Part shown: in pieces, positions 21,001 through 27,000 of the stretch
Numbering within the stretch: the first letter of the stretch is position 1
How the letters are laid out: each line of letters begins with the position of its first letter
DNA from: Candidatus Bathyarchaeota archaeon
GTDB taxonomy: Archaea; Thermoproteota; Bathyarchaeia; Bathyarchaeales; Bathyarchaeaceae
NCBI GenBank assembly: GCA_963697165.1
Contig: CAVOMX010000025.1
Coordinates: forward strand, 118,525-182,524
DNA: 64,000 nt
Direction: 5' to 3'
Position numbers: made by a program

Positions 21001-24000
21001 ACTTCTTCTGCAGCGTAAAATGCAAAAAGAAATTCAAAAGAAACAGAAGCAAATTCGCCGACAAATAAAAAATCGGCTTTTTAAAGTGCATAATCACGAA
21101 TTTTAATTATGTGTTCTTCTATAAACCGCAACAATTGATAACCAAACAGTATAGCGGCAACATACGGAGCCCACAAAATCACTGGCCAATTTCCAGGAAT
21201 GTAATGCCACAAATCAGACTGGGTTGCAAACACTTCCATAAGAACCAGTGAAAAAAGCCCAGCAATAGCCAAGTAAAATTGTTCTTTAACATTATTTGTT
21301 TTGCCATTGCGTTTTCTGTTAAGCATTAGAACCGCCCATGCACCTATGAATGCAAAGAAGAGAATGAACCAATTTTGGTTAAAGTCAAATAGTGAGTTGC
21401 ATACCCCAAAAACAAGGTTACTCTATAAAAACCTTATTTATTTTCCCCAAAAAACTCGAATCAACAAAAAAACAAACCCAAATACAATCAACAGGGCACA
21501 CCGCCAAAAGAACCAAACCATGAGAATCCTTATGTAAAACCTGACGCATCAAAGAATTCGTGAAAAAAAGGGGCCGTCGGCTAGCATGGTCTAGGCTCTG
21601 AGCCTCGGACGTTCGGGACCCCGGTTCAAATCCGGGCGGCCCCACCAAAAGCTACGCTAAAAGGGATAAACAAAAAAATGTACCTAAAAACTAGGCTAAT
21701 TTATTTCTTTTCTCGCTTAGCAATCTCTTTGGCAACTATAACTCCAGAAGCAGACGCTTGAATGAGTCCTCGGCTTACTCCAGCTCCGTCACCGATAGTA
21801 AACATGTTCTCGATTCTTTGTTTCCAGTTGATCAGTCAACTCGAGCCTTGAGGAATAGAACTTAACTTCTATTCCATAAAGCAACGTGTCGTTCGAGTTT
21901 ACTCCTGGAGCCACCTTATCCAACGCCTCAAGCATCTCTTTGATGTCAGACAAATAGCGGTAGGGCAAAACGAAGCTGAGGTCTCCTGGCGTGGCATTCT
22001 TGAGGGTTGGAACACACAGGCTCCGTTTTATCCGCTCCTCTGTTGAGCGGCGTCCAGCCTTTAGGTCGCCTAGCCTCTGAATGATTACGCCTCCGCTGAG
22101 CAGGTTTGAGAGTCGTGCAATATATTTTCCGTAGGCTATGGGTTCTCTGAATGGTTCTGTGAAAGCTGTGCTGACCAAGATTGCAAAGTTGGTGTTTTTT
22201 GTTTTCCGTTCAGCATAGCTCTGTCCGTTCACTGTTAAGATGCCATCATAGGATTCGGTGATAACTTCTCCGAGAGGCGAAACACAGAAGGTCCGCACCT
22301 GATCATCAAACGATTTAGAGTGATAAATCAGCTTGGGCTCATACAAGGTCTTAGTTAGTTCCTCCATGACAGCAGCTTGAAGCTCCACCCTGACGCCGAT
22401 GTCCACAGGATTGTTCAAAGTTTTCAGACCAAGAACCTCTGCCTCAGTTTTCAACCACTCGGCGCCGATTCTTCCAGGCGCCACAATCACATATTTTCCA
22501 TAGAACTTTTCGCCCTTTGTTGTCTCAACACCTTCAACCTTGCCGTCTTTAACCAAAAGGCTCTTAACGTCTGTTCGGGTCCGAATGTCAACCCTACCTT
22601 CAAGATGACTACGCATCTTACGAAGAGTCTCAGCACATTTTTCAGTGCCCATATGCCGAACTTTCTGGGAAACAAGCTTCAACCCAGCAAGAGAAGCTTT
22701 TCGTTCGAGTTCATCAAACTTTTCTGGACCCACACCATAAAGATGCTTAGTAGCCCCAAACTTCAGATAAACGTCATCAACATAATGGAGCAACTCCCAA
22801 AGTTGCTCTTCGGTGCAGTATTCGTTAAGCCATCCACCAACTTCTGTTGACAAAGTAAGCTTTCCATCACTAAAAGCGCCAGCGCCGCCCCAACCAGCCA
22901 ACAGGGAGCACGGGTCACAGTTCACGCAGCCCAAGCCTCTACTGGCAGGACATTTGCGCCGATCAATAGCTGAACCTTTATCCAAAAGCAAAATACTGAG
23001 GTTTGTTTTGTCAGCTAACTCAAGAGCAGAAAATATTCCAGCCGGACCAGCGCCCACAATTATGACGTCGAAATTCATCAAGGGTTCCTCCGGAATTCCA
23101 AAACTACATAGAATAGGTGCAATATATGTGTTGGCTGGAAAGCAACAAACTAAACAATAAGCCAATGTTAGAAGCAGAAGATAAACGGTTCAGTTTAGCT
23201 ATTTTGGCTTTAGCAAATTTTTGCAGATACAAAAAACTGTGGATACTCATTTTGTTTCTTCCTCTTTTTTAAGAGTCTTATCCATCAGTTTCCGAAGAAT
23301 AGGAACAGCTTCCTGTTCGGTAACGGATTTTGTGAAAACTGAAACTAAACTGATCTTGTTCGTTTTTTGGGCAAGAAGTTCAGCTAATAGGCGGGCAATT
23401 GTCATATTTCTGTCTCCAAGCAACACTGAGGAGAGAGGTGAACCAACCAAGTTCTTTGGTTGCGGCATAGCCACAGCCAATGTGCCCAGCTTGTCTTCGC
23501 CTTCACTCAAAAACAGTTGGTTCGCATTTTTTGTTTCTATGTAAACGGCAAAAAATGACGTGCCCTGTTCATTATGCTCTTCTTTGATGATTTTTGCTCG
23601 TGACAACCCCGATTCTCCATGCCATTAATAGCAGGGTCAAGCGTCTATTTAGTATTTTCAAACAAATAGGCAACTAAAAGGTTTACAGAGTTGTGGAGTA
23701 CACTGTGCTTAAGCTGGTCTCCCTGAAGTTTTTGTTCAGTTTTATCTGCCCGAAACACAGCGTAGACACTTTCTTGCTCACAGGAGTGTAGACTTTCAGA
23801 ACTTTTCGTTTGTAATCAACTTCATGCAGGATACCAATTCCCAAAAAATGGTCTTCCTCATCTTTTAGCCCCACAAGCAAGCCCTGCTCGTCTCCTTTAC
23901 GTATCACTTTAACCCGTTTTCCGAAGTGCTCCTCAACAGATTTAATGTTGCGTCTCATTAACTGTTTTCACTCTCCTTTAACACAACAAGGAGAACAGTA

Positions 24001-27000
24001 ATATGTTTCTTCAGCGTAAACTGGTCTTGTTCCCAACAGATTACACAAGGTTTCCAAACGGTTACGAGTCAATGGAACGCCAGACCCCAAAAGAGAATCT
24101 TCAACTTTAATCCAACTAATAGAAAAAGATTGAATCTTTGCTCCTTTCATGTACTTCTTGTAACTAAGCTCCCGCAAAAGCTTCCTTTTTTCTCTACTTC
24201 TTGGCTGAATCAGACTGTGGAGAATCAATAACAAGAACCTTGACGCCATGCAATGCGTCTAAAATGGGTGTTTAACTCGTTTTCCTGTTGCATTCCCACG
24301 ACAACGCTGGGAGCAACCTTTTCTGCTAATCGAACTTTGTATGCGACTGCCTCTTCGCCTTCGATCCAGCCGTCAGTGTTTATGACAAGAAAATCCACTG
24401 CCCGCCTCCATCACTCTAGCCTCCAGAGAAGTCAAGCCCTCAACGACCTTACTTATTGCTCCGCTTGGACTCGTCGACCCCACAAAAACCGCGTCCTGAG
24501 CATCAATCTCGAAGAGGTCCTTCACAGGCTCAGCTACGAAATTGAATCCCACAGTTGAGGGCGGACCCACATCAGACTGACCCAAATCAGCGTCGATAAC
24601 GCTTGTCCTCAGCTTCTCTTTCACAGCCGCATTCACAAGAAAAGTGCAGAAGCTTGTCTTGCCTGAGTCTACGCCGCCTACAACCATGACAGTCACAGGT
24701 TTATCTAGGGACAAAAGCTCCTTCGCAGCTTCATCCCACGAAGAAGGAACGGTTCCATCTTCAACTTCGTTTATGGAAGCCCCTTGCCCAAGCATAACTT
24801 CAAGAGTAGCCGTTTTTTTGATCCACAGGGGCAACCGTTTTCCTTGCCTGACCACAAGATTCTCTTCGATTTGAAGAGGTGCACCCAGAACGTTTACATT
24901 TCCGGAGAGAAGGCTCACGGAAGCGGGTCCGTCAACAAGTAAAGTCTTTCCTTCATCGATAACATGCTTCATGGAAGATTCCTTCTCGAAAATACTCGAC
25001 CTTTTCTTCCCGCAATTTTTATGGCAGAAATAGCGTCCCTTAACACTCTGCGGTTCACAGACTTGTTCGCGAGCTGACTTGTACCAGCCTCACGGACCAC
25101 CTCAACCAAAACATCTTCTGGCAGACCAGCTTCCAATAAATCGAGTAATGTTGTGGTGTATTCGGGAGTTCCATCTCCCACCCTCACCACGCTAACCTCG
25201 GCTGGAAACCGTTTCAGGCTGTCTACAATGAGGTGAGCCGCATCTTCTATGTTTGACGCTGTCAGGGTTTCTAGGACCTTGTTGTCGCCTAGAATGGCTA
25301 TGCCGCAGGTTTTGCCGGGGTCTACTCCGACAACAATTCTTTCGTAGCCCTGTTTTCCCTGAATAATCAAAACTGCCTCATCTACTACAGATTCAGGGTT
25401 TGATTCCTGCTCAAAAAGTAGAATGTTTGGGTGTGAAATCTGGCTGCTCTCCGCTTCTGTGGTTAGGACAACTTTGATATTAACTGGAACAGGATCCCAT
25501 GGTTTCAGGCTCAAGAAGGGCAACCTCTTTCTCTGCAGTTCGTTCACAAGTTCGTAATAGGCTCTTCCATTAACGGTTGCAACAGCTATTCTCGTTTTCA
25601 TTTGATTACACGTTCCATGTTCCACACAAGAAACAACTGATTAGAAAATGGAGAGATGTCTTCATGCATAACTTTGAACCCTGCGTGACTCTTCCTGTCT
25701 TTTTTCCGCTTAAATATCTTACGAATAATTATTCAATAAAAACAGACAGCAGAGAGAAGGCTTATAATTCCTGAGGATTACTTCGATTCTTGTGTTAGCG
25801 AATTGCATAAGCTCATTCCAACGGGTTGTATCTCGCTTGACAAATTGTTAGGAGGAGGATTCCCTGCCGAAAGCGTCTCCCTCATCTATGGAGAAGCGGA
25901 AACAGGCAAAACTTCTCTTGCTGTTCAATGCGCAGTTAATTGCGCACGCAGAGGCATCAAGTCACTCTTCATAGACACTGATGGAACTTTCTCCTATGAA
26001 CGACTGTCACAGATAGCAGAGTACGATTACCAAAAAATTTCACCACTCATGATCATAATGAGACCAACAACATTTCAAGACCAATCCAAATCAATAGATC
26101 ACCTTGAAAAGGTTATAAACAAAAAATTTGGGTTAATCATCGTCGACACAGTCACATCACTATATCGAGTAGAACTTGACGGCACAAAAGAAACATACGC
26201 CGCGAACCGCGAGTTGAACAGACAGTTGGCGGTTTTGATGCAGATAGCCAAAACATGTGGAGTAGCAGTTCTCATTGTCAGTCAGGTGAGAAGTGTTCCT
26301 CTTGGAGAAACGGTTGAAATGAAACCTGTGGCAACGCGTGTTCTGAACTACTGGTCAGACATCATACTCGACATGAGGCAGACAAGTCAAACGCGGGTCA
26401 TAAAGGTCCTGCGCGAGAAGCATCCGAAAATCAAGGGAAAAGGAGCCATTTACGTTAAGATAGAGAGAACAGGAATAAGCGATTACATGCACTAGAGTTA
26501 TTTTCTTCACTAATGAATAAGGATTGAAAAACATGACAATAACAGTAATCGACGTCGCCGCAGCCATGTGGTTTATTTTCCCAGCGTACTGTGCCAACGC
26601 AGCCCCTGTCATCTTCGGCGGAGGCAAATCCATGGATTTCGGCAAAAAATTTGTGGACGGCAAACCATTCCTTGGATCCCACAAAACATTCAGAGGATTC
26701 TTGGCGGGCATTATCGTGGGAACGTTAGTTGGAGCAGCGCAAACAGTCATCTTTGAACAGTTTCTATTTCAATACAGCCCCCAGTTTGAATACAGCATAC
26801 TGCTTGGATTTGTGCTGTCTCTAGGAGCTTTAACAGGCGACTTGATAGAATCATTCATTAAAAGGCGGCTAAACCGTTCTCCCGGAAGCTCGCTTCCAGT
26901 AGCGGATCAGATAGACTTCATACTGGGAGCATTCCTCTTTTCCATCCCAGTTTCGTCCCCCTCTTTGGTTTCGGCTCTGATAATTCTCTTGATAACAATC

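Follow-up and report, generated by a model that had tools for sequence, protein, structure and literature searches.

A predicted two-domain nuclease of the YqgF/RuvX type encoded next to the Clp1-family kinase in Thermoproteota

In eukaryotic pre-rRNA processing, Clp1-family kinases are paired with nucleases at RNA ends in Las1-Grc3, where the endonuclease acts before the kinase, and in Grc3-Rat1, where the kinase licenses a 5'-3' exonuclease. Las1, a HEPN protein, and TSEN are metal-independent and generate 2',3'-cyclic phosphate and 5'-OH ends, a kinase then being needed, and two-metal nucleases of the RNase H fold leave 3'-OH and 5'-phosphate ends. Neither the HEPN fold of Las1 nor the Xrn-type fold of Rat1 is related to that of the RNase H-type family considered here. 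Passages of PMC6777427 describe Ph-Clp1 as phosphorylating the 5'-OH of DNA as well as RNA, with RNA preferred in competition, and place the Clp1 relatives Nol9/Grc3 in pre-rRNA processing.

Regarding nucleases, sections of PMC9601230 present the YqgF proteins of E. coli and D. radiodurans as acting on RNA, with D22, E106 and D122 required for the activity, and describe DrYqgF as devoid of junction activity. Cleavage of branched DNA is attributed to mycobacterial RuvX in part of PMC11466669 and in the title of PDB entry 7ess, and an excerpt of PMC11213020 ascribes the DED pattern to YqgF, RuvX and Tex and the DEDD one to RuvC. Among archaeal proteins, DUF460/COG2433 (PF04312) has been predicted by Majorek et al. 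2014 (PMC3985635) to belong with the RNase H-like proteins and to have resolvases and Tex as relatives.

The locus here analysed lies in a window of 64,000 nucleotides, a stretch of contig CAVOMX010000025.1 from a Candidatus Bathyarchaeota archaeon, and comprises the following features in window coordinates:

24969..25601, minus strand: gene of the predicted two-domain nuclease, 210 aa from the ATG at 25601 (ORF and family relatives)
25356..25601, minus strand: its N-terminal alpha/beta domain, residues 1-82, with a predicted flavodoxin/receiver-like fold (AlphaFold2 and VIA-align)
24999..25346, minus strand: its C-terminal domain, residues 86-201, with a predicted RNase H fold of YqgF/RuvX type (VIA-align and triad counts)
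24969..24972, minus strand: ATGA stop/start overlap of 4 nt between the nuclease and Clp1 genes, read from the sequence
23683..24972, minus strand: gene of the Clp1-family polynucleotide 5'-hydroxyl kinase, broken into at least four ORFs (PF16575 on two fragments and a reading of the three frames)
25602..25802, no strand: intergenic region separating the divergent pairs nuclease-Clp1 and RadB-CarS (ORF map)
25803..26495, plus strand: RadB-like RecA/Rad51-family ATPase, divergent neighbour (PF08423, 3e-34)
26524..27069, plus strand: CDP-archaeol synthase CarS, member of the conserved block (PF01864, 3.2e-47)
23247..23606, minus strand: PAC4-like proteasome assembly chaperone, downstream of Clp1 (PF16093, 2.2e-9)

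A 210-aa gene sharing its last 4 nt with the beginning of Clp1 had been described in an earlier note on this DNA, and both the ORF and the ATGA sequence confirm it. The longest ORF at the locus (24969-25625, minus strand) encodes 218 aa from an alternative GTG start at 25625, and the ATG at 25601 gives the same MK..IAV beginning as aligned relatives. The gene is intact in the window, with zero indels versus contigs of four public runs. The Clp1 gene is indeed split, as previously claimed, with its N-terminal part in ORF 24373-24972 (minus strand; PF16575, E 4.3e-21), the remainder of its P-loop domain in fragment 24225-24398 (PF16575, E 1.7e-7), and a weak NOL9_C match in fragment 23683-23958. 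The breaks correspond to six single-base insertions (near 24399/400, 24269, 24213, 24003/4, 23965 and 23948/9), and since these extra bases are absent from the contigs of the four public runs and 5/23 other window genes compared are also split across frames, they are probably an assembly error. Relatives carry intact Clp1 orthologues of 427-429 aa in the same position, competent by their motifs, with Walker A, D127/D129/Q132, D200-G201-W202 and the lid arginines conserved in 28 sequences.

The nuclease belongs to a family whose members are annotated solely as "hypothetical protein" and which comprises 553, 263 and 22 clusters at E <= 1e-3, 1e-10 and 1e-30, respectively, in the representative search, the first figure reproducing that reported before. 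The absence of a family annotation was likewise borne out: Pfam gives for the 210-aa protein DUF460 alone (residues 82-114), at 21.4 bits versus a cut-off of 28, and NCBIfam no relevant match. An independent alignment of 74 family sequences (A1), on which the conservation counts and the AlphaFold2 model are based, returned the same invariant set as the earlier one, namely D94, G96, G142, V169, E171, A193 and I196. Its acidic triad consists of D94 (74/74), E171 (74/74) and D189 (67/74, with N in 4 and H in 3); thus, the third acidic residue is not invariant, as had been noted, yet it can be identified and is mostly kept. D94 of the window protein sits in a GVDPGK motif, and the GxDPG and V-[DE]-E motifs are kept across these 74 diverse sequences. 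In the N-domain, T9, Y15, T47, T/S48 and E/D51 are conserved, with T9, T47, T/S48 and E/D51 forming a polar patch. A long form with a C-terminal three-helix extension occurs in Thermoplasmata, Hydrothermarchaeota and Asgard archaea.

The AlphaFold2 model on A1 (pLDDT 93.5, pTM 0.84) reproduces the two domains described previously, at residues ~1-82 and ~86-201. In VIA-align, the C-domain matches RuvX 7ess_A (Z 11.3-11.4, rmsd 2.8, 113 aligned), IS621 8wt9_B (Z 11.2), Tex 3bzk (Z 10.4-11.1), SPT6 8oev_S (Z 10.2), RuvC 4ld0_A (Z 10.1) and YqgF 1nmn_A (Z 10.0-10.1), as well as poxvirus and chloroplast resolvases. Together with the conserved acidic residues, the model therefore assigns the C-domain with high confidence to the YqgF/RuvX-Tex-RuvC type of RNase H fold, as the note had proposed, and within it to the YqgF/RuvX type. 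The N-domain resembles NtrC/PrpR N-domains, best exemplified by the NtrC-family N-domain 2q5c_D (Z 9.9, 84 aligned), and receiver domains (Z 8.3-8.7). The top Foldseek hits are MID-PIWI Argonautes, at E ~1e-5 rather than the ~5 given before, but with TMq ~0.3 and rmsd 13-16 A, and Argonautes are absent from the top 50 of either VIA-align list.

Compared with bacterial YqgF/RuvX (PF03652), the archaeal protein shares the RNase H fold, with the best structural matches at Z 10-11.4, and the order of the triad (strand 1 carrying GxDxG, strand 4 being followed by [DE]E and the last helix bearing D..[SA]A), but has an additional N-terminal alpha/beta domain of 80 residues. The window protein itself gives no Pfam RuvX match, whereas 8/74 family members do, one of them over the cut-off (P0150, 29.9 bits versus 29.2, profile positions 3-113 of 134). 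To our knowledge, the linkage to Clp1, RadB-like and CarS genes has no bacterial parallel. DUF460 proteins are also archaeal and share the strand-1 motif GIDPG..G.A, but the canonical ones have 608-673 aa, carry the nuclease domain near residue 240, are encoded elsewhere in the same genomes (none was found in G000, 81% complete), and score 1e-42 to 1e-49 against PF04312, whereas 44/74 members of the short family match it, all under the cut-off; the two are paralogues and separate families. The YqgF-like domain of Tex/Spt6 is a fold match (Z 10-11), Tex_YqgF being detected in 5/74 members, again under the cut-off; nonetheless, the large, multidomain Tex and Spt6 differ from the window-type nuclease, which is small with the acidic triad fully kept. 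The RuvC-like domain of IS110/IS621 bridge recombinases matches both short and long forms (Z 11.0-11.8), but the nuclease lacks a Tnp domain, repeats or mobile context, and its gene is single-copy and in conserved synteny. The literature search found no paper on the short family or its Clp1 link.

The claim that the nuclease-then-Clp1 order is widely conserved in Thermoproteota holds: it is found in 61 of the 70 genomes in which both places are readable, across 21 families (19 from listings plus f32 and f33), Sulfolobaceae included. In 60 of them the start of the CLP1_P domain lies 291-382 nt downstream in the same orientation; G120, where the two genes are also adjacent, is the 61st. Clp1 adjoins the nuclease in 5/5 complete genomes of f32, f20 and f47 and in 24/30 loci of the window's order; the overlap is exactly 4 nt in 16/30 pairs, three Sulfolobaceae among them, and spacing falls within -59..+26 nt in 28/30. 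Considering the same orientation and the 4-nt overlap, one transcript with coupled translation is most likely, and the two genes very probably form an operon. A search for a fused nuclease-Clp1 protein found none, which is weak evidence.

Each gene is also common without its partner. Of the 50 genomes of family f19, 46 have the nuclease and none has Clp1, and in at least two species of the window's own genus (G005 and G016) no Clp1 is found above the cut-off and PAC4 directly follows the nuclease, so that Clp1 has been cleanly lost there and the nuclease retained. Conversely, Clp1 occurs with no nuclease match in f14, f16, f17, f21, f24, f28, f29, f31 and f34 and also, for the most part, in f22 (nuclease matches in f22 1/10, f24 0/4, f29 0/3, f31 0/5). 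Outside the phylum, Clp1 lies next to the nuclease in 0/6 loci with downstream sequence and elsewhere in 3/5 of their genomes; both genes are on different contigs in two Asgard genomes and one uncultured archaeon.

A block with the order CarS<-RadB-like<-|->nuclease->(Clp1)->PAC4->(UbiX)->UbiD is shared by the window, Sulfolobaceae-like loci and Baldr- and Odinarchaeota, the two Asgard genomes sharing it with no Clp1 inside. Where Clp1 is missing, PAC4 directly follows the nuclease (L012, L013, L014, L017, L027, L049, L050 and two Asgard loci). The RadB-like gene is the conserved divergent upstream neighbour from the window's order to Sulfolobaceae-like and Asgard loci, found in 29/30 relatives' loci, the 30th having only 84 nt of upstream sequence, and CarS follows it in most loci examined. 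This neighbour is thus steadier (29/29 loci with room) than Clp1 (24/30). As a separate observation, its steadiness points to DNA.

Taken as a whole, the previous interpretation of the locus is partly supported. The best explanation overall, offered tentatively, is that both proteins would work on a common set of RNA 5' ends, with the kinase acting before the nuclease. Clp1 would give a 5'-phosphate to 5'-OH ends, for instance on fragments that metal-independent RNases have produced, and the nuclease, a putative archaeal branch of the metal-dependent YqgF/RuvX class with D94, E171 and D189 as its catalytic triad and a fused flavodoxin/receiver-like domain bearing its own polar patch, would then trim or cleave from the 5' side as a 5'-end-dependent RNase. 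Such a sequence fits better than cutting followed by phosphorylation, and would follow Grc3-then-Rat1 logic rather than Las1-then-Grc3. Regarding its parts, the protein is probably an active nuclease, its substrate is somewhat more probably RNA than DNA, and real functional cooperation with Clp1 is nearly evenly balanced, leaning slightly against. Since it is retained where Clp1 is absent, the nuclease would also need a Clp1-independent role.

The first alternative, less probable yet serious, is inherited gene order only, the nuclease being a housekeeping YqgF-like enzyme functionally unrelated to Clp1, and the adjacency and overlap being remnants of an ancient block kept by compact-genome inertia. 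The note had itself suspected that the linkage is partly inherited, and as the pair lies inside an old syntenic block of functionally unrelated lipid, proteasome and cofactor genes, shared with Asgard archaea, part of it is so; the steadier RadB-like neighbour, the frequent solitary occurrence of either gene and the clean loss of Clp1 in one genus agree. Nonetheless, the pair survives changed flanks (G062, G089, G120), the 4-nt overlap is maintained across very deep divergence, and both products, in contrast to the rest of the block, work at the ends of nucleic acids.

An improbable alternative is a RuvC/RuvX-like structure-specific DNA nuclease working with the divergently encoded RadB-like recombination ATPase, Clp1 serving as a DNA 5'-end healing kinase. 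The junction-resolvase matches, the constant RadB-like neighbour, Asgard loci included, the activity of Ph-Clp1 on DNA, and a Hydrothermarchaeota locus where an Lhr helicase gene overlaps the nuclease 3' end are consistent with it. On the contrary, the D-E-D triad agrees with the YqgF/RuvX/Tex pattern and not with RuvC DEDD, the YqgF precedents and the preference of Ph-Clp1 favour RNA, and RNase H-fold cuts leave 5'-phosphates, so that repair needs no DNA kinase. Moreover, in six f19 loci the RadB-like gene and CarS are both missing from the neighbourhood, where a PUA/TGT_C2 protein and NAC are encoded instead; with TGT and Lhr in the Hydrothermarchaeota locus, contexts without Clp1 are still RNA/translation-flavoured.

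Still less probable is the previous reading itself, in which Clp1 phosphorylates the 5' end that an endonucleolytic RNA cut has just exposed, on the model of Las1-Grc3 or TSEN-Clp1. Although the conserved nuclease-then-kinase order with its overlap and the Nol9/Grc3 role in pre-rRNA processing would suit it, the analogy fails on chemistry: an RNase H-fold enzyme with the conserved triad would leave a 5'-phosphate product, which would be no Clp1 substrate and would give the kinase nothing to do, and the nuclease persists in f19 genomes that lack any Clp1. Finally, a non-catalytic role in nucleic-acid binding or regulation, as thought for Tex/Spt6 YqgF-like domains and with the receiver-like N-domain as sensor, is very improbable, since against the Tex/SPT6 and receiver or NtrC/PrpR likenesses stand the family's GxDPG and V-[DE]-E motifs, its complete D-E-D triad and the absence from the N-domain of a conserved aspartate at the receivers' phospho-acceptor position.

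The predicted nuclease is a widespread housekeeping protein of Thermoproteota and, though each gene widely occurs alone, its link with Clp1 provides a testable lead to the function of Clp1 in archaea.

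The nuclease gene runs directly into the gene of Clp1, the polynucleotide 5'-hydroxyl kinase, and was read in the window as follows:

24969-25625, minus strand: nuclease ORF with a GTG start, 218 aa

An ATG at 25601 gives the 210-aa nuclease, and relatives share its start MK..IAV. The TGA of the nuclease lies in an ATGA together with the ATG of ORF 24373-24972, reproducing the 4-nt overlap described in the earlier note. Among 30 such pairs, with ORFs called from their first start, 16 have a stop/start distance of exactly -4 nt, three Sulfolobaceae among them, and 28 fall within -59 to +26 nt. 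Contigs from the RNA library of run X18 cover parts of the two genes, and none of them spans the junction by 31 nt on each side.

Presence of the two genes was surveyed in 301 genomes sampled throughout the phylum Thermoproteota, of which 297 reach at least 90% completeness with contamination of no more than 5%. A1, a 74-sequence alignment of the nuclease family, matches in 232 of the 301, and the Clp1 domain CLP1_P in 240. Adjacency was counted on the best 150 places of each search. Family f19, which is without Clp1, was left out with its 45 nuclease places, as was a second partial match in genome G143; 104 nuclease places remained, and 70 of the genomes concerned also have a Clp1 place among those listed. 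In 60 of these 70, a same-strand CLP1_P domain starts 291-382 nt downstream, and therefore in an abutting gene, while inspection added G120. The nuclease-then-kinase order previously proposed to be widely kept is thus found, among the places listed, in 61 of 70 genomes from 19 families. The other 34 of the 104 genomes are without a Clp1 place among the best 150 listed and stand outside this count; upon inspection of four of them, the genes were adjacent in G062 and G089, and Clp1 was missing from G005 and G016. A further sample of five complete genomes (three of family f32, one each of f20 and f47) shows the adjacent pair in all five, including one, G311, with proteins labelled Stygiolobus caldivivus. 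For the taxonomic order to which the window belongs, Clp1 directly follows the nuclease in 24 of 30 loci.

The Clp1 gene of the window is itself in pieces. ORF 24373-24972 holds its N-terminal part (PF16575, CLP1_P, E 4.3e-21, 76 bits against a cut-off of 26.6), fragment 24225-24398 the remaining P-loop domain (CLP1_P, E 1.7e-7, 31.7 bits against 26.6), and the last fragment, 23683-23958, a weak NOL9_C match. Compared with 90-99% similar contigs from three DNA libraries and one RNA library, all of them public runs, it contains six 1-nt insertions, at 24399/400, 24269, 24213, 24003/4, 23965 and 23948/9, and no indels were detected in the nuclease gene against contigs of the same runs. Clp1 genes of relatives are intact, with 427-429 aa. 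Moreover, of 23 ORFs compared from relative G001, 5 have their counterpart in the window spread over two or three frames. The split genes other than Clp1, from the comparison with G001, and a nearby tRNA gene are:

16764-18226: gene split over two or three frames
18287-19496: gene split over two or three frames
21570-21647, plus strand: tRNA-Pro(CGG); the 76-aa ORF 21418-21648 on the opposite strand is its shadow
21704-23078: gene split over two or three frames
27743-29816: topoisomerase I, split over two or three frames; its C-terminal piece is the 70-aa ORF 27531-27743
32223-32524: gene split over two or three frames

The several frame changes reported earlier are therefore present in the sequence, but the bases concerned are missing from related contigs and, because frame breaks are common in this assembly, they are probably assembly errors. 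A real pseudogene is a possible alternative, since Clp1 was lost in sister species. The assembly (G000; 1.99 Mb, 25 contigs, 81% complete) seems to hold many single-base indels, which may also account for its completeness estimate.

AlphaFold2 modelling on A1 (pLDDT 93.5, pTM 0.84) predicts an RNase H fold of the resolvase/YqgF clade for residues 86-201, in line with the earlier assignment. In VIA-align structure comparison this C-domain matches RuvX 7ess (Z 11.3-11.4, rmsd 2.7-2.8, 112-113 residues aligned), the IS621 recombinase (Z 11.0-11.2), Tex (Z 10.4-11.1), T. thermophilus RuvC (Z 10.1), YqgF from E. coli (1nmn, Z 10.1) and D. radiodurans (7w89, Z 10.0), SPT6 (about Z 10), and Cas9/Cas12 RuvC lobes and terminase nucleases (Z 9-10.6). 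The invariant residues D94, G96, G142, V169, E171, A193 and I196 were found again in A1, built from 74 full-length representatives with 26-74% identity to the window nuclease; T9, L22, G92, P95, G100, D189 and G201 are kept in at least 90% of them, and residue 170 is D or E in 54. Read from alignment columns, the predicted catalytic residues are the D-E-D triad of the YqgF/RuvX clade, with D94 and E171 in 74/74 sequences and D189 in 67/74 (N in four, H in three). Passages of PMC11213020 give DED as the pattern of YqgF/RuvX/Tex, versus DEDD in RuvC-like enzymes, and D22, E106 and D122 are described, in part of PMC9601230, as required for DrYqgF activity.

The family is large and mostly nameless. 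Representative search with the window nuclease returned 553 clusters at a threshold of E <= 1e-3, falling to 263 at E <= 1e-10 and to 22 at E <= 1e-30, while a word-based search yielded 660 proteins, the names shown among the 120 listed being "hypothetical protein" save one; ESM Atlas neighbours bear that same label, and their largest cluster counts 2035 members, most of them from Nitrososphaerota. By their source names, close homologues put the organism of the window in Bathyarchaeia. As noted before, DUF460 (PF04312) is the sole Pfam match of the window nuclease (21.4 bits, cut-off 28), covering 33 residues (82-114), which align to positions 24-58 of the 135-position profile. DUF460 matches occur in 44/74 A1 members, all of them weak (best E 1.2e-5). 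RuvX (PF03652) gave no match to the window nuclease at E <= 5, its gathering score being missed; it matches 8/74 A1 members at E <= 0.01 (best 8.2e-7), of which protein P0150 alone passes the gathering score (29.9 versus 29.2 bits, profile positions 3-113 of 134), and Tex_YqgF matches 5/74. Canonical DUF460 proteins of five complete genomes are 608-673 aa long, score 1e-42 to 1e-49, lie far from the short nuclease gene and have only the GIDPG motif in common with A1, near their residue 240; their architecture (~600 aa, nuclease domain in mid-protein) is not that of the window nuclease. No canonical DUF460 was found in the 81% of the genome represented by the assembly, where a second DUF460-like place was rejected as DnaK. 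DUF460/COG2433 is predicted to be archaea-only, RNase H-like and related to resolvases and Tex (Majorek et al. 2014, passages of PMC3985635).

The N-domain further sets the family apart, the matched solved YqgF/RuvX chains being single-domain proteins of 120-151 aa, whereas the 210-aa window nuclease carries an added domain at residues 1-82. Searches with the window protein and with A1 returned no fused or longer forms, which is weak evidence; six longer representatives (276-363 aa) contain no informative Pfam domain. A long form of ~250-280 aa (alignment A4; loci L061-L067), found in Thermoplasmata, Hydrothermarchaeota, Baldr- and Odinarchaeota, has a conserved C-terminal three-helix extension with the rough consensus P..GE.R.IQ..SR..S.G..TIS..LA..V..GE, over which its model (pLDDT 91.7) gave no structural matches. 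Residues 1-84 of the window nuclease match the NtrC-family N-domain 2q5c_D (Z 9.9), PrpR (Z 9.6) and many receiver domains (Z 8.3-8.7), the fold being a common alpha/beta sandwich; no conserved aspartate was seen in the 74 A1 sequences where receivers have their phospho-acceptor. Conserved polar residues are T9 (69/74), Y15, T47 (65), T/S48 (70) and E/D51 (70), which in the model cluster presumably at the C-terminal edge of the parallel sheet, and this cluster looks like a putative small ligand- or phosphate-binding site. Foldseek placed MID-PIWI Argonautes first (E ~1e-5, TMq 0.27-0.33, rmsd 12.6-16 A), a ranking with poor superposition that no other search reproduced: Argonaute chains are absent from the top 50 of both VIA lists, in which the C-domain and the N-domain each match their own kind of chain, RuvX-type and receiver-type respectively. 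The Argonaute-like reading was set aside, and the resemblance is treated as one of layout only. Against PDB sequences, the A1 profile gave only chance-level matches (de novo TIM barrels; IscB, E 0.2).

Las1 and TSEN are endonucleases that leave a 5'-OH because they are metal-independent, and two-metal nucleases of RNase H fold leave a 3'-OH and a 5'-phosphate. The earlier note had proposed an endonuclease followed by a kinase, as in Las1-Grc3 or TSEN-Clp1, but the predicted fold and acidic triad suggest a two-metal RNase H-like enzyme, whose 5'-phosphate products would leave the kinase no work. The chemistry thus argues for kinase-then-nuclease and against nuclease-then-kinase. Our tentative preference, held with less than even confidence, is a YqgF-type RNase that would share substrates with Clp1, the kinase acting first, and have a Clp1-independent housekeeping role besides. 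Sections of PMC6777427 describe Clp1 family kinases as phosphorylating 5'-OH RNA, with Ph-Clp1 preferring RNA and accepting DNA too, and E. coli YqgF processes pre-16S rRNA in 70S ribosomes, according to part of PMC9601230. Complex prediction for Clp1 and the nuclease of G001 (alignments A3 and A2) scored 0.01 with a mark of 0.32, uninformative either way.

The main competing explanation, somewhat unlikely in our estimation, is an inherited gene order without cooperation. In the window, the FAD-oxidoreductase, PAC4 (proteasome assembly chaperone-like), Clp1 and nuclease genes point one way, and those of a RadB-like RecA/Rad51-family ATPase and of CarS (CDP-archaeol synthase) diverge from them across a region of 200 nt. 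In Baldrarchaeota, CarS and RadB diverge from nuclease, PAC4, UbiX and UbiD, with the same downstream part in Odinarchaeota. An order of CarS and RadB-like divergent from nuclease, (Clp1), PAC4, (UbiX) and UbiD is seen at window positions 23247-27069 and in loci L037, L049-L060, L066 and L067; it is common to Bathyarchaeia, Sulfolobaceae-like genomes and two Asgard genomes, and its genes serve unrelated processes. The nuclease is a member of this old syntenic block of functionally mixed genes, so adjacency weighs less as evidence of function. Against mere inheritance, nuclease and Clp1 are the only co-oriented, overlapping pair of predicted nucleic-acid-end enzymes in the block, and the pair is kept where flanks differ (G062, G089, G120). 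In this small sample, Clp1 joins the block only in Thermoproteota.

The two genes also occur apart. In family f19, whose genomes are mostly ~1.5-1.9 Mb in size and in many cases complete, 46/50 have the nuclease and 0/50 have Clp1; in six of its loci (L043-L048) a PUA/TGT_C2-domain gene, NAC and a small ORF precede the nuclease, with UbiD a few genes away. In the window's genus, PAC4 directly follows the nuclease in loci L012, L013, L014, L017 and L027, and neither G005 (97% complete, one contig) nor G016 (95%) has a Clp1 over the cut-off anywhere in the genome, their flanks being otherwise as in the window. Conversely, Clp1 occurs in families f14, f16, f17, f21, f24, f28, f29, f31 and f34, whose 20 genomes together gave no nuclease match, and of the 10 genomes of f22 one has the nuclease. 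Thermosome or UbiD-AcnX genes follow the nuclease in f36 (3/4 genomes) and f23 (two genomes), Clp1 being elsewhere, and a single gene intervenes in G202 (UbiD) and G032 (Rce1-like). Outside the phylum, a query with one Thermoplasmata protein, P0238, gave a small sample of seven loci (three Thermoplasmata, an uncultured archaeon, Hydrothermarchaeota, Baldrarchaeota and Odinarchaeota), with Clp1 next to the nuclease in none of the six that have downstream sequence; Clp1 lies on another contig in 3/5 genomes and is not found over the cut-off in 2/5. Thermococci and Methanococci, too, have Clp1. On the Hydrothermarchaeota contig (L065, 3980-7478) the nuclease gene extends into the beginning of a gene for a 913-aa Lhr-type helicase, and biotin ligase and TGT-like genes lie upstream.

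A DNA-structure nuclease acting with the RadB-like ATPase appears doubtful. Of 30 loci of relatives, 29 have the divergent RadB-like gene and the 30th has only 84 nt upstream, and RadB-like and CarS genes also flank the nuclease in loci of f36, f23, f20, f33, f38 and f32; in f19 loci L043-L048, Clp1, RadB-like and CarS are all missing. The original cut-then-phosphorylate model is quite improbable, as 5'-phosphate ends are unfit for the kinase, and a non-catalytic binder is scarcely to be expected of a family so conserved in its triad columns.

Beyond the preferred kinase-first RNase, Clp1 and the nuclease might form an archaeal 5'-end surveillance module, a speculative proposal that we consider rather unlikely. 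Clp1 would phosphorylate 5'-OH RNA fragments such as excised introns and spacer pieces, together with products of metal-independent RNases and toxins; the nuclease would then sense the 5' end state through the putative N-domain pocket (T9/T47/T48/E51) and degrade or trim the RNA 5' to 3'. In a bolder variant, the alpha/beta plus RNase H layout would be a minimal MID-PIWI holding the 5'-phosphorylated strand from Clp1. If true, the module would foreshadow Grc3-Rat1 in prokaryotes and give archaeal Clp1 its first physiological role.

The fold class is known, and the RNase H-like nature of DUF460 is in print (PMC3985635). Literature searches of main texts on Clp1, YqgF/RuvX and COG2433 in archaea found neither the nuclease family nor its linkage to Clp1, and the dark-matter review PMC6393860 does not treat the family. 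Apparently new, as not found in these searches, are three things: a separate and very widespread archaeal branch of YqgF/RuvX made up of the short two-domain proteins, the N-domain of these proteins, and the conserved nuclease-Clp1 operon predicted from gene order.

Archaeal tRNA ligation by RtcB uses 5'-OH ends directly, without the need for a 5'-kinase. For archaeal Clp1, passages of the Clp1 evolution paper (PMC6777427) report in-vitro activity only. A conserved partner gene, present across at least 21 Thermoproteota families including the cultivable Sulfolobaceae, makes the cellular role of the kinase simple to approach by experiment, and the mechanistic analogy first drawn for the pair is corrected, the chemistry arguing for the reverse order of action. 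Independently of Clp1, archaea have a distinct two-domain branch of the YqgF/RuvX class, and a great many of their "hypothetical proteins" gain a name and a testable activity.
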